Shown here: positions 30,318 to 58,363 of the stretch, piece after piece | Layout: every line of letters starts with the position of its first letter | How positions within the stretch are numbered: position 1 is the first letter of the stretch | DNA from: Candidatus Woesearchaeota archaeon | Lineage (GTDB): Archaea > Nanobdellota > Nanobdellia > UBA10117 | NCBI GenBank assembly: GCA_964354105.1 | Contig: CAYGXM010000005.1 | Span: 1-59,360, forward strand | Length of the DNA: 59,360 nucleotides | Direction of reading: 5' to 3' | The notes under the pieces: generated by a model | The model's input: only the letters and a program-made list of their open reading frames with translations | Databases searched by the model: none | Told to the model about the DNA's origin: nothing | Translations under genes and position numbers: made by a program

Positions 30318-30592
30318 TGGCGAGCTAGTCTGCCCGGCCAGGGAGCGGGTGTTACAGTAAATTCCCTTTAGACTGAGACGAAGCTTTGAGAGCGGCTGCT
30401 TATGCAGTTAGCTGTCCTAGTGTATGGCGTCGAAGTACAGTCTCTATGGACGTCAAGATTAGGAAACTCCGTTAGATCCGGAAGGAAGCAGCGGTAACTT
30501 AGTTTTGGTGTGCTATAGTTCAATTGTATGGAGCTTTCATTGGGGTAAAACAGTTAGTTGTTAAGTAAGTCCACCACAGGGCCTGCTCGCCA
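30318..30592 (+). ncRNA. signal recognition particle (7S) RNA
   Basis: Helix 8 signature TTAGATCC-GGAA-GGAAGCAGC; terminal helix TGGCGAGC...GCTCGCCA; ~275 nt; TATA box upstream. Confidence 0.92.
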
Positions 30593-31114: not shown

Positions 31115-31242
31115 GCCGAGATGGCCCAACCTGGTATAAAACGAAATTGGCGAATTTCGCTAATTTCCTTACAGGAAAAGGCGAAGGATTGCTAATCCTT
31201 TTTCCCGCAAGGGATTTGTGGGTTCAAATCCCACTCTCGGCG
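31115..31242 (+). tRNA. tRNA-Ser(GCT) with 42-nt D-loop intron (31136-31177)
   Basis: GCCGAGA/TCTCGGC acceptor, AAGGA-TT-GCT-AA-TCCTT anticodon arm, long variable arm; BHB CCTG/CAGG with GT|A and AA|A bulges. Confidence 0.92.
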
Positions 31243-32113: not shown

Positions 32114-32553
32114 AAGCTTACTTAACTTGGGGAATTGGTTATGGGAAAAGCCGAGAGCTTGCCGAGATAAATGCACAAGCTGATGCAAATCTTGACAAAA
32201 TCAAGATTGGCAAGCTTACAAAATTAGAAATTCCTAAATGCGAAGTTGTTGAAAACAAGAAAGCCTTGCTGGAATTAAAAGGAAGTTTCTTTGGAATTGT
32301 ACTGCAAAACTGCAAGAAAGGTGAAGTTGCAGCATCTTTAGTTCTAGGATTAACTGAAGAAAAAATAATAATTGGGCATGGAAAAGCTGGCGGCCTGGTA
32401 AAAGCTGAAAGGGAAGCTGAATTTGAAGTCAAAAAGGCAATTCAGGAACAGAAATTAGCTCTTGATGGTATTGATTATCACATAGCCGCAGATGCGCCAG
32501 CTAAGAAAGATACATTTGGCTGTGCAATTGTTGCTTTAATTCTAGTTGAATAG
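32110..32553 (+). CDS. pyruvoyl-dependent arginine decarboxylase homologue, probably inactive
   Basis: Aligns by eye with PvlArgDC (G..YG...A...A..ANL; FGCAIVAL), but the Ser-Ser cleavage site reads LTK. Confidence 0.65.
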   Translation: MKAYLTWGIGYGKSRELAEINAQADANLDKIKIGKLTKLEIPKCEVVENKKALLELKGSFFGIVLQNCKKGEVAASLVLGLTEEKIIIGHGKAGGLVKAEREAEFEVKKAIQEQKLALDGIDYHIAADAPAKKDTFGCAIVALILVE

Positions 32554-32590
32554 AAAGGCTTTATAATTGATTTTTAGAGCTTAAACTTAC

Positions 32591-32741
32591 GGGACGGTAG
32601 CTCAGCCTGGGAGAGCACACGACTGAAGATCCCAGAGCAGACATCGTGGGGAATCTATCAGCTATCGCTGATAAGTCCACAATCGGGTGTTCAAAATTGA
32701 GAAGTCACTTTGGCTTCCCACAGAAATTCACCCCCGTCCCA
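32591..32741 (+). tRNA. tRNA-Phe(GAA) with three introns (32629-32642, 32652-32682, 32696-32727)
   Basis: Removing the three segments gives a canonical cloverleaf: GGGACGG/CCGTCCC, CACGA-CTGAAGA-TCGTG, GGGTC, GGGTG-TTCAAAT-CACCC. Confidence 0.88.
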
Positions 32742-33447
32742 TATCTAATGCCAAATTAATTTTGCTTAAATTTCGTTGATTATTAGATCCTATCAATTCC
32801 ATCCATCTCCTTAGATTTTTCCAGCCTGAAATGTAAATCGAAGATCCAATACTTGTAAAACCGCGCTTATCTTTAGTAACAACATCATACGCAACGTAAA
32901 AATAAAATCCTAATTCTCGCAGTAATCTCTCTATTTGTTTAATTGCTTGCTTACTTTTTTGGTTTATCTTAATAACAGGATAGCCATGATTATAAGTTTT
33001 TAGCGATACGCAGCCATCAGTATCAAAAATTCCTCGTAAATATGCGCGCGATAAATCCGTATTGTTTAAAATAATATTTGGAATAGACCAATTTGTTTTT
33101 CGTCCAATATTAACACCTAAACTTTCTAAGTAATATACGATGCCTTTTGAACGAAATTGGATATGAATAGTATTCTGGCCTTTATGTTCGCCTATTTTCA
33201 GGCTAACATTAAACAAATTTTTCAAGAGTGGCAATAAAATATTTTGAAAATATTCTCTATCTTTTTTAGAATTACCACTTATGCCAATCATATGTTCAAT
33301 ACTGCCACTGTGATGCGCATATCGCAACACATATCCATCACCAGCCAATACGCCTAAAAATTCAGCTAATTTTCCATCTACAGATTTAGGTAATTTAATA
33401 CCGCGTTTTACATCCTTACGACTAAAATATTTGAACACTTCTTTCAT
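32728..33447 (-). CDS. free-standing LAGLIDADG (intein-type DOD) homing endonuclease
   Basis: LAEFLGVLAGDG and YLRGIFDTDG motifs; no intein splicing domains. Confidence 0.9.
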   Translation of the reverse strand: MKEVFKYFSRKDVKRGIKLPKSVDGKLAEFLGVLAGDGYVLRYAHHSGSIEHMIGISGNSKKDREYFQNILLPLLKNLFNVSLKIGEHKGQNTIHIQFRSKGIVYYLESLGVNIGRKTNWSIPNIILNNTDLSRAYLRGIFDTDGCVSLKTYNHGYPVIKINQKSKQAIKQIERLLRELGFYFYVAYDVVTKDKRGFTSIGSSIYISGWKNLRRWMELIGSNNQRNLSKINLALDMGRG

Positions 33448-33489
33448 CGGTATATTATAGTAAACAAATCAAATAAAGCTATGTTACTA

Positions 33490-34656
33490 CTATAAGTCTA
33501 AACCTAAAGCAAAACTCTTTCCCTTCTCAGTAACATAACTATAGTAAGGCCAGAAAGTTTGCTGCAATCTATTGCCTGATGTATGCATGATTTCTGCATA
33601 TTGTTCTGCAATGCCCCGCATTTTCTTCCTCTTTGCAGCTCTAATAAACAACTTCAACAAAAGTTCAGGTTGCTGGTGCATTACAAATTTCTTATTAGCT
33701 TCTGATTTTGCCTGCTGAACTCCTGCTAAAGCAAGATAGCGGGCATAAACAAGGAAACGCCAGTGCTGCCATCTGCTGATTCTTGCTAAAAACATGCTTG
33801 CATCAGCCAAATTTTGATATGCAAATTCCAAATCTGAGGATTTGGTATACTCTGCGGGAATGTTTTGGTCTAACCATAAAATCAAACTGTCTATATCTTC
33901 ATTAACATAATCTGAAATCTTCAGCATATCTTTTGTATTGAATGATTTAAAGATTAATTTCAGCAAAGTAAAGATGCTTTCTTCTTTTTCTCTTCCAAAT
34001 AGTTTAATGTCAGCTTCTGTCAGCATTTTGTCATCGCCTGCCAGCATCTGCAGGTCATTTATCGCTGCTCTTAAGTCGCCATTTGAACTTACAGCTAATT
34101 TCTGCATGGCTGGCAATTCATATTTTACATTTTCCTTGGCACAAATTTCTCTCAATCTAACTAAAATGTCGATTGCACTTAATTGTTTGAACTCTACAAG
34201 CTCGCAATAAGCCCTTAGAGATTTTAATTTATCGGAATAAGCATCATTTGCAGTCAGTATAATTGGAAAATTGCTTTCTTTTATGACATCTGCAATCGAA
34301 CCAACTCCGCCTCTATCCTGATGTCCTGATAAGCCATCAATTTCATCAACTAAAATCAATTTCTTTTGGCCAAATAAGCTGACTTGCTTGACAGCAGGCA
34401 TTAGAACATTTATTATGGAATCTGCATTCCTGCAATCAGAAGCATTTAGTTCTATTAATTCCAAATTAAGCTCATTAGCAAGAGCTTTTACAATAGATGT
34501 CTTGCCATTTCCAGTCGGTCCGTGCAGTAAAAGAGCTTTTTTGCGAACTCTTGGGAAATTTCTTACAAAGTTTACAACAGAGCCTGCAACAAGAGCTTGT
34601 CCAGCTACCTCTTTTACTTTCTTAGGATTGTATTTCTTTATCCAAGGCTCAACCAT
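33490..34656 (-). CDS. rfcL: replication factor C large subunit
   Basis: PWIKKYNPK, GPTGNGKTS, ELNASD, LVDEIDG, WRFLVY. Confidence 0.96.
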   Translation of the reverse strand: MVEPWIKKYNPKKVKEVAGQALVAGSVVNFVRNFPRVRKKALLLHGPTGNGKTSIVKALANELNLELIELNASDCRNADSIINVLMPAVKQVSLFGQKKLILVDEIDGLSGHQDRGGVGSIADVIKESNFPIILTANDAYSDKLKSLRAYCELVEFKQLSAIDILVRLREICAKENVKYELPAMQKLAVSSNGDLRAAINDLQMLAGDDKMLTEADIKLFGREKEESIFTLLKLIFKSFNTKDMLKISDYVNEDIDSLILWLDQNIPAEYTKSSDLEFAYQNLADASMFLARISRWQHWRFLVYARYLALAGVQQAKSEANKKFVMHQQPELLLKLFIRAAKRKKMRGIAEQYAEIMHTSGNRLQQTFWPYYSYVTEKGKSFALGLDL

Positions 34657-58125: not shown

Positions 58126-58236
58126 CGGGCCCGGGATGATTTGAACACCCGTTAGACGCTGGTTGCACAGCAAGCTCCGCAAACGAAGTTTGCCCTACCG
58201 CAAGCGCCTGTCCTATCCAAGCTAGACGACGAGCCC
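58126..58236 (-). tRNA. tRNA-Arg(GCG) with 37-nt intron at 37/38 (58161-58197)
   Basis: GGGCTCG/CGGGCCC acceptor; GGCGC-TTGCGG|A-GCGTC; BHB helix TTGC/GCAA. Confidence 0.92.
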
Positions 58237-58275: not shown

Positions 58276-58363
58276 AGCCCTATCGTCCAGCGGTCAAGGA
58301 TACAAGCCTCTGGTTATAGCAAAGAGAAAGCTTGGGACACCGGTTCGAATCCGGTTAGGGCTA
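58276..58363 (+). tRNA. tRNA-Gln(CTG) with 15-nt intron at 37/38 (58314-58328)
   Basis: A1-U72 acceptor AGCCCTA/TAGGGCT; CAAGC-CTCTGG|A-GCTTG; BHB helix CTCT/AGAG. Confidence 0.93.

Follow-up and report, generated by a model that had tools for sequence, protein, structure and literature searches.

Why should a free-standing homing endonuclease gene of an archaeon end inside a tRNA gene, on the opposite strand, and is its presence there connected with the introns that interrupt the tRNA? We addressed this question in a 59,360-nucleotide stretch of DNA (hereafter the window), contig CAYGXM010000005.1 of the Candidatus Woesearchaeota archaeon assembly GCA_964354105.1, in which a LAGLIDADG open reading frame (ORF) converges on a tRNA-Phe(GAA) gene carrying three introns (Table 1). 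The source assembly (G000, of which the window is contig C5) comprises 723 kb in 14 contigs, has 39% G+C and is 87% complete. The answer we regard as probable is that the ORF and its leader form a functional selfish cassette of ~750 bp, inserted between the stop codon of the gene for the large subunit of replication factor C (RFC-L) and the 3' end of tRNA-Phe, and that this cassette belongs to a family of free-standing nucleases which docks on tRNA gene ends.

The encoded protein matches the Pfam family LAGLIDADG_3 (PF14528) with 51.3 bits, the cut-off being 22.5. Among 14 aligned family members, invariant residues are confined to the two motifs and include both catalytic aspartates, D37 and D144 (contexts G36-D37-G38 and T143-D144-G145). 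Searched against the PDB, the family profile retrieved PI-PfuI (8e-13), I-DmoI (~1e-8), I-Tsp061I and the endonuclease domains of V-ATPase inteins. The AlphaFold2 model (pLDDT 92.4, pTM 0.90) displays the doubled alpha-beta-beta-alpha-beta-beta-alpha order, and Foldseek matched it to the TliVMA intein endonuclease, to I-DmoI-DNA complexes and to I-Tsp061I (E 1e-12 to 1e-10, probability 1.00). Ratios of nonsynonymous to synonymous substitution rates (dN/dS) among orthologues range from 0.08 to 0.14, the values involving orthologue L153 being unreliable because an N-terminal indel is not codon-aligned. Sequence and model alike point to an intact monomeric two-motif LAGLIDADG endonuclease, resembling I-DmoI and maintained by purifying selection, for which DNA cleavage is predicted.

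Comparison with relatives reveals an insertion polymorphism. In G001, which belongs to the same genus, a spacer of 10 nt separates the RFC-L stop codon from the 3' end of tRNA-Phe, and in two further relatives (G005 and G012) the gap between RFC-L and tRNA-Phe is ~40 nt. In the window, this gap holds 748 nt (33489 down to 32742), namely the 42-nt leader and the part of the ORF that lies outside the tRNA. RFC-L converging on tRNA-Phe is the ancestral arrangement in the order, and our scan of RFC-L genes showed that this synteny is limited to the order of the window. A search for related loci with the endonuclease protein as sole query gave no hit. The family hidden Markov model (HMM) detected no degraded nuclease remnant at the 28-30 RFC-L loci of relatives, G020 excepted. 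Within positions 32450-33650, no flanking direct repeats, terminal repeats, target-site duplications or tRNA fragments were found, and the leader contains no tRNA-like sequence. Hallmarks of integrase-type elements are likewise missing: there is neither a duplicated tRNA segment (att) at the borders nor an integrase among the neighbouring genes. Because G001 provides an empty site, and because no direct repeats or tRNA fragments flank the ORF, the latter resides in no intron or intein; it starts 42 nt past the RFC-L stop and has no intein flanks around it.

The leader contains a TATA-like sequence (GCTTTATTTGA) centred ~26 nt upstream of the endonuclease ATG, is promoter-like and may function as a promoter. 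A bacterial promoter and terminator scan gave results at chance level, the model being bacterial and thus irrelevant for archaea. A 15-nt inverted repeat (33474-33488 and 33529-33543, 87% complementary) also links the leader, at its left end (TAGTAACATAGCTTTA when read on the minus strand), to part of the last 50 nt of RFC-L; it could be a terminator-like RFC-L hairpin or a chance occurrence.

On the other side of the insertion, the tRNA gene at 32591-32741 is reported neither by ARAGORN (with or without -i) nor by Rfam (at the gathering threshold or at E<=10). It was recovered by a custom finder that tolerates up to one insert in each of three places (anticodon arm, variable region, T arm). 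Once the three introns are removed, the remaining 74 nt are folded by ARAGORN into a perfect tRNA-Phe(GAA) cloverleaf, identical at 65 of 74 positions to the intronless tRNA-Phe of G005. When folded by hand, intron 2 exhibits a full bulge-helix-bulge (BHB) motif (central helix GTGG/CCAC, bulges GG|A and AA|T) with an internal hairpin, intron 1 a relaxed hBH motif (central helix CTGA/GCAG, 3/4 paired) and intron 3 a relaxed BHB motif (TTC/GAA, 3/4 central pairs). A search for Phe-like genes found no second tRNA-Phe in the 87%-complete assembly; the gene that ARAGORN calls as such at C1:99991 was rejected, as it is a tRNA-Val(GAC) with a D-arm intron.

The overlap between ORF and tRNA coincides exactly with the last exon, and the stop codon abuts intron 3, at a boundary that may slide by 1-3 nt because A/T is repeated there. 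This coincidence carries no special meaning, since the TGA is built from exon bases (T-stem GGGTG plus position 60) and the stops of other family members lie at +60 to -86 nt from the tRNA edge. An earlier reading of the window, made from the sequence alone (hereafter the sequence-only reading), had described a free-standing LAGLIDADG endonuclease, without intron or intein around it, whose last codons and stop lie antisense in the 3' end of a triple-intron tRNA, up to the boundary of intron 3. Our results bear out this description on all of these counts.

Which of the two flanks matters to the nuclease can be judged from its orthologues in public metagenomes. These share 93, 77, 76, 74, 71, 65 and 59% identity with the window protein and nearly all comprise 239 aa (235 aa for the 65% orthologue). 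The 93% and 77% orthologues occupy the same RFC-L context as in the window. The 74% orthologue is located between an M50-like gene and DUF357, with no RFC-L, and the gene list of the 65% orthologue (a gene list only, with no DNA) resembles that arrangement. At all orthologue loci with DNA (93%, 77% and 74%; L149-L156), the 14-nt overlap is identical, with ...ATGGG(A/G)(C/G)(G/C)GGGGTGA running into a multi-intron tRNA-Phe. Nucleases of other families which converge on the 3' end of a tRNA-Phe (L106, L133 and L135) have no RFC-L nearby either. As contexts devoid of RFC-L keep the tRNA-Phe junction, the tRNA is the constant partner and the other flank is not.

An alignment of the two contexts shows homology that begins ~45 nt before the ATG, with the TATA-like sequence, continues through the ORF and the entire tRNA-Phe, and is bounded by the RFC-L stop and the tRNA 5' end. 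Such limits, which are exactly those of a block made of leader, ORF and complete tRNA-Phe, are compatible with this block, introns included, moving or replacing the resident tRNA as one piece. The mosaic structure of the tRNA-Phe alleles fits as well: intron 2 of the window shares ~95% identity with its counterpart in L153 (nuclease only 74% identical) but has no relationship with that in L149, despite a nuclease identity of 93%. T-loop introns follow another pattern. However, tRNA exons are conserved regardless, so that only the introns and the leader are informative, and G001 carries a near-identical tRNA-Phe at the same place with no nuclease, which indicates that the tRNA is resident rather than imported. 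Furthermore, terminal repeats and duplicated tRNA remnants are missing, and a single tRNA-Phe was found per assembly. We therefore consider transfer of the block as one piece to be quite unlikely.

The preferred reading, a cassette that docks on a tRNA end, finds its broadest support in the nuclease family as a whole. The family, which is large and belongs to DPANN archaea of the Woesearchaeota/Nanoarchaeia type, was detected in 12 of 41 relatives and in 141 of the 401 genomes of the archaeal class, often in several copies. Among the 4-6 paralogues of G000, only about one locus is common to the congeneric G001. Such scattered occurrence in multiple divergent copies is the signature of a selfish element. 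From ~90 genomes, we gathered 107 distinct family ORFs of free-standing size, and considered as docked those having a tRNA terminus at -90 to +60 nt of their stop codon. In class A, this terminus is the 5' end and the tRNA shares the strand of the ORF; in class B, to which the window ORF belongs, it is the 3' end of a tRNA on the other strand. Sixty-eight of the 107 (64%) are docked (47 in class A and 21 in class B). The number rises to 76 (71%; 49 and 27) with a more sensitive detector that relies on the acceptor stem and T arm only, the additions being mostly multi-intron initiator tRNA-Met genes. Among the other ORFs of G000, by comparison, the same detection finds 10 of 566 docked (1.8%; odds ratio 97, Fisher p 6e-54, uncorrected for ancestry). 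The family ORF is always oriented into the tRNA and usually lacks a stop codon of its own. The stop it uses is supplied by U8-A9-G10 (TAG) or another part of the tRNA, by a T-loop intron, or by the TAA within the tRNA's TATA box.

The partner is also a matter of tRNA species. For this analysis, tRNA identities were taken only from a structural finder or from intronless ARAGORN calls; ARAGORN -i labels were avoided because they often misname the anticodons of intron-bearing tRNAs. On the maximum-likelihood tree of the nucleases, tRNA identity is clustered, with 25 changes as against a mean of 36.7 and a minimum of 32 in shuffled data (none of the 500 shuffles reaches the observed value), and each branch of the family is tied to one tRNA species. 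Clustering by docking class is weak (15 vs 18 changes; 21 of 500 shuffles), and the sister nucleases L020 and L142 are located at opposite ends of the same tRNA species, tRNA-Arg(UCU). The window protein groups loosely with other class-B members docked on tRNA-Phe.

Gene packing is tight and overlaps are frequent across the 0.72-Mb genome, and some family members contain in-frame stops. One might thus ask whether the contact merely reflects chance adjacency in a compact genome, or whether the gene is a decaying, inactive relic. The odds ratio of 97 relative to other ORFs speaks against the former, and the latter conflicts with an intact ORF, a dN/dS of ~0.1, conserved catalytic residues and an overlap kept in orthologues. 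Given the insertion relative to a congeneric genome and the systematic location of the family at tRNA ends, the contact is not due to chance, and we regard this explanation as effectively refuted, with hardly any probability left to it.

Several loci illustrate the variety of these junctions. In L080, L108 and L129, three class-A members on tRNA-Ile(GAU), the ORF terminates in the TATA box of the tRNA itself, using the TAA of a TTATAA motif situated ~25-30 nt before the tRNA, and in L081 a TATA-like sequence (TTTTAAAC) lies within the last ORF codons, before the ORF reads into the tRNA. In G000, an initiator tRNA-Met(CAT) at C1:97313-97469(-) (locus L003; A1-U72, acceptor AGCGGGG) carries three introns, in the D loop, after the anticodon arm and in the T loop at 59/60; a class-B family nuclease, C1:96664-97350(+), converges on its 3' end, with a stop within the T-loop intron. 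Another G000 locus (C3:27701-28665) consists of a family nuclease, C3:27936-28568, between two tRNAs: the end of a tRNA-Tyr(GTA), which has introns in the anticodon arm and the T loop, lies 75 nt before the nuclease start, and the last 15 nt of the nuclease gene overlap the 5' end of the next tRNA (His according to ARAGORN). An orthologous tRNA-nuclease-tRNA unit is present in G001. In G020 (CP070803.1, ~195.6 kb), a family ORF of 225 aa is enclosed by the tRNA gene of locus L018 (1485-2232). One part of this gene (1485-1516) supplies the acceptor, the D arm and the 5' strand of the anticodon stem, the other (2197-2232) the 3' strand of that stem, the T arm and the acceptor, and a helix (GGTGAAAG/CTTTCACC) joins the two junctions. 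Two readings apply to L018, an intron of BHB type that carries an ORF or a tRNA gene that has been disrupted, ARAGORN accepting far too many solutions when splice sites are fitted. The family profile also matches LAGLIDADG domains in very long frames of 560-1530 aa (for example L026 and L027), which are presumably inteins in housekeeping genes, so that free-standing and intein-borne relatives would coexist in these genomes. Finally, an ORF at C12:1522-2022 that converges on a tRNA-Gly with a T-loop intron was discarded, as it is not a LAGLIDADG gene.

Are the introns of tRNA-Phe part of the homing system? The sequence-only reading had suggested that the nuclease cuts intron-less tRNA alleles, so that intron and nuclease home together. 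In such collaborative homing, the cut would fall at an intron site of intron-less tRNA-Phe, most plausibly T-loop position 59/60, 14 nt from the ORF; the intron would protect its carrier, and co-conversion of both would result in tRNA intron gain. Alleles at this locus bear directly on the proposal. Four of them have the nuclease: that of the window combines introns at 37/38, of type a in the variable region and of type 1 in the T loop; that of L149 has a variable-region intron of type c at 43/44 and a T-loop intron of type 1; that of L151 (nuclease 77% identical) has introns at ~29/30, of variable type b and of T-loop type 2; and that of L153 (in the other context) has introns at ~29/30, of variable type a and of T-loop type 2. 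Among alleles with no nuclease, that of G001 has introns like those of L151, that of G003 has introns at 37/38 and of T-loop type 3, and those of G005 and G012 have none. Intron 1 of the window is missing from the G001, L149, L151 and L153 alleles.

Some of these data agree with collaborative homing: the 59/60 intron adjoins the ORF end in 4/4 orthologous nuclease-bearing alleles, and alleles lacking both introns and nuclease exist in G005 and G012. In addition, both class-B nucleases of G000 converge on three-intron tRNAs with a T-loop intron (tRNA-Phe and the initiator tRNA-Met described above), and T-loop introns are somewhat commoner in partners docked at their 3' end than in those docked at their 5' end (6/24 vs 4/46, p 0.08, a weak trend). 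However, the 59/60 intron is found in every allele of the sub-clade, whether the nuclease is present or, as in G001 and G003, absent; 18/24 class-B partners have no T-loop intron, and many partners are intronless, including the tRNA-Phe of the class-B locus L106 and many other tRNAs across the family. T-loop introns are also common in G000 anyway (~7/36 tRNAs).

A survey of nuclease-tRNA adjacency relative to intron presence had been set beforehand as a check of this idea, lack of a statistical association with intron-bearing tRNAs being among the outcomes that would count against it; that is the outcome we obtained. Counting only tRNAs modelled by a single structural finder, and comparing nuclease-adjacent tRNAs with non-adjacent ones from the same loci or genome, we found no enrichment in any intron (31/45 vs 35/54, p 0.83), in two or more introns (9/45 vs 9/54, p 0.79) or in variable- or T-loop introns (11/45 vs 14/54, p 1.0). 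As introns occur without the nuclease, intronless partners are numerous and adjacent tRNAs are not enriched in introns, homing of intron and nuclease together is left unsupported, and we hold the collaborative scheme to be unlikely. Another part of the sequence-only reading, that neighbouring sequence may spread with the nuclease and provide a route for intron gain, survives in a weaker form, since the introns fall within the stretch of DNA that is likely to be co-converted and tRNA-Phe alleles have a mosaic intron content; the cutting of intron-less alleles that was to accompany it is not supported.

Taken on their own, the tRNA-Phe alleles (window, L149, L151, L153, L030 and L031) display a reticulate intron content between close relatives: the single T-loop site is occupied by introns of three sequence types, the two variable-region sites together also by three, and the anticodon arm is interrupted at 37/38, at ~29/30 or nowhere. 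The acceptor stem varies by pair swaps (GGGACGG, GGGAGCG, GGGGACG and GGGGCGG).

A host function has also been considered. According to this hypothesis, which the sequence-only reading had raised as well, the protein would be domesticated and play a role at the tRNA locus, for example as a maturase-like helper for the multi-intron pre-tRNA or as a locus-specific regulator. Purifying selection is indeed strong, organellar LAGLIDADG maturases exist, the bI3 maturase appears among the fold matches of the model, and partner tRNAs in G000 are unusually intron-rich. Nevertheless, the distribution of the gene is patchy: the congeneric G001 does not have it, nor do most of the relatives in which this intron-bearing tRNA occurs. 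Moreover, both catalytic aspartates are invariant and many partners are intronless. In archaea, a protein endonuclease excises the BHB introns, and these are not known to depend on maturases. Domestication is thus very unlikely.

If the cassette is selfish, as we favour, its spread can be pictured as follows. Alleles lacking the nuclease would be cut at or beside the end of the cognate tRNA gene, and repair from a nuclease-bearing allele would copy the cassette in, the conserved tRNA serving as one homology arm for recombination. The cassette would remain outside the mature tRNA sequence and preserve tRNA function; with the mature tRNA intact, the insertion would be cheap for the host. An ORF with no stop codon of its own would read on until the tRNA supplies one, hence the overlap. 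A half-site in the acceptor stem, where the DNA reads alike inward from both ends, would fit the fixed orientation of the ORF 3' end toward the tRNA at either of its ends. The three introns would be bystanders for targeting and, lying within the probable co-conversion tract, may be shuffled.

Several points weigh against this picture. In class A, the cassette reaches no further than the tRNA promoter, ending before or within it, and the enzyme may thus recognise a sequence other than the tRNA. The occurrence of the cassette in two unrelated contexts requires non-homologous joining on one side, or movement of nuclease and tRNA as a unit. No tRNA partner was detected for 31 of the 107 family members. 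Finally, the tRNA calls come from ARAGORN and two custom finders of limited sensitivity, which miss introns in the D arm and the acceptor, and the p-values are uncorrected for shared ancestry.

The intron mosaics, together with the same nuclease-tRNA block in two contexts, suggest that conversion tracts run through the tRNA. One may then ask whether breaks made by tRNA-docked nucleases drive gene conversion through the tRNA, so that small ORF-less BHB introns hitch-hike between alleles and species. Mosaic tRNA-Phe alleles that are discordant with the nuclease phylogeny, and a block found in two contexts, would be the footprint of such conversion-driven intron spread, an idea we put forward as doubtful yet worth entertaining.

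Table 1. Coordinates and supporting evidence of the features at the RFC-L/tRNA-Phe locus of the window
Feature	Position	Strand	Details	Evidence
tRNA-Phe(GAA) gene	32591..32741	+	three introns	multi-intron finder, ARAGORN on spliced product
tRNA-Phe exon e1	32591-32628	+		
tRNA-Phe intron 1 (i1)	32629-32642	+	14 nt, canonical position 37/38	
tRNA-Phe exon e2	32643-32651	+		
tRNA-Phe intron 2 (i2)	32652-32682	+	31 nt, position 46/47, variable loop	
tRNA-Phe exon e3	32683-32695	+		
tRNA-Phe intron 3 (i3)	32696-32727	+	32 nt, T-loop position 59/60	
tRNA-Phe exon e4	32728-32741	+		
ORF/tRNA overlap	32728..32741		14 nt; last exon (positions 60-73) on +, codons M-G-R-G-stop on -	
LAGLIDADG homing endonuclease ORF, free-standing	32728..33447	-	239 aa + TGA stop (32728-32730)	ORF list, Pfam, structure model
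Endonuclease motifs	within 32728..33447	-	motif 1, LAEFLGVLAGDGYV (catalytic D37); motif 2, LRGIFDTDGCV (D144)	
Leader	33448..33489	-	42 nt, RFC-L stop codon to endonuclease ATG; left cassette end	orthologue conservation
Replication factor C large subunit (RFC-L)	33490..34656	-	left flank of insertion	Pfam AAA, RFC1 lid, Rad17

The unit formed by the endonuclease and tRNA-Phe has as neighbours RFC-L, whose closest named relatives are in metagenome-assembled genomes of Candidatus Woesearchaeota and Nanoarchaeota, and a gene for a 147-aa protein with no Pfam match. Further away, a tRNA-Ser(GCT) with an insert is located at 31115-31242 (+), its acceptor and T arm being supported by the end detector; the label tRNA-Arg(gcg) given to it by ARAGORN -i is a miscall. 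RFC-L, tRNA-Phe and this tRNA-Ser(GCT) are syntenic throughout the order. At 30435-30532 (+), the Rfam model of the bacterial small signal recognition particle (SRP) RNA matches with 45.3 bits (gathering score 40) in this archaeal genome, a match which presumably corresponds to the conserved core of the archaeal SRP RNA. Two divergent intron-bearing tRNAs are found at 58126-58236 (-) and 58276-58363 (+). The latter scores 51.6 bits with Rfam and is read by our finder as a tRNA-Gln(CTG) with a 15-nt intron, whereas ARAGORN labels it '???' or Pyl(cta).

Homing endonucleases have been described in introns, in inteins and in the genomes of phages. Those of T-even phages include free-standing enzymes responsible for 'intronless homing', such as SegB, a GIY-YIG nuclease encoded in the tRNA gene cluster of T4. 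The window nuclease resembles SegB-type genes in several respects: it resides in no intron or intein, lies between conserved genes and beside a tRNA gene, is polymorphic for presence between relatives, and would be expected to propagate through the repair of double-strand breaks, adjacent DNA being co-converted in the process. It differs from them in being a LAGLIDADG enzyme of a cellular archaeon rather than a GIY-YIG enzyme of a phage, in having its ORF fused to the tRNA terminus in a fixed orientation, with the stop within the tRNA, and in belonging to a family diversified over many tRNA species. Zeng, Bonocora and Shub are said to have described collaborative homing in 2009, in which the free-standing F-CphI adjoins the intron-containing psbA of cyanophages, mobE and nrdB reportedly forming a similar pair. 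The likeness lies in a free-standing nuclease gene beside a gene with an ORF-less intron; by contrast, the co-distribution of intron and nuclease which defines these systems is not seen here, and the introns are protein-spliced BHB introns instead of group I introns. With I-DmoI, I-Tsp061I, PI-PfuI and the TliVMA intein, its best profile and structure matches, the window enzyme has in common the fold, the two-motif architecture and the catalytic aspartates. Whereas I-DmoI and I-Tsp061I (from rRNA BHB introns) and the inteins are silent thanks to their host intron or intein, the window enzyme would be silent by virtue of a site just outside the mature tRNA.

In archaea, tRNA genes are the landing sites of integrative elements, from which introns have been proposed to protect them (Randau and Soll 2008; discussed in PMC3293823, Sugahara 2012, and in PMC4090602). 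Elements of the integrase type have been proposed at tRNA-Thr, direct evidence tying mobile elements to tRNA disruption being lacking (PMC3293823), and the mechanism of tRNA-intron transposition is described as unknown (PMC4090602). The present locus shares with these elements the presence of mobile DNA at tRNA gene termini in small, intron-rich archaeal genomes. The elements, however, involve integrases, att sites and partial tRNA duplication, while here we find a homing endonuclease and no integrase, att duplication or tRNA fragment. In full-text literature searches, we came across no account of LAGLIDADG genes located in this manner at the ends of archaeal tRNA genes, and the tRNA-docked family is apparently undescribed.

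A large cellular family kept harmless by its position just outside mature tRNAs, and radiated over many tRNA species in a major DPANN group, would represent a new niche for selfish nucleases. The family would also offer natural meganucleases, readily available and directed at a variety of long targets. Beyond the enzymes themselves, it places a testable agent beside two questions: why tRNA genes are so heavily and variably interrupted in small archaeal genomes, and whether introns shield tRNA genes from mobile DNA, as hypothesized by Randau and Soll. The locus analysed here is a good test case, as close relatives provide an occupied site as well as empty ones, both with introns (G001) and intronless (G005 and G012). 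Should hitch-hiking of introns prove true, it would supply a so far missing explanation, at the level of DNA, for how non-canonical archaeal tRNA introns are gained and turned over.

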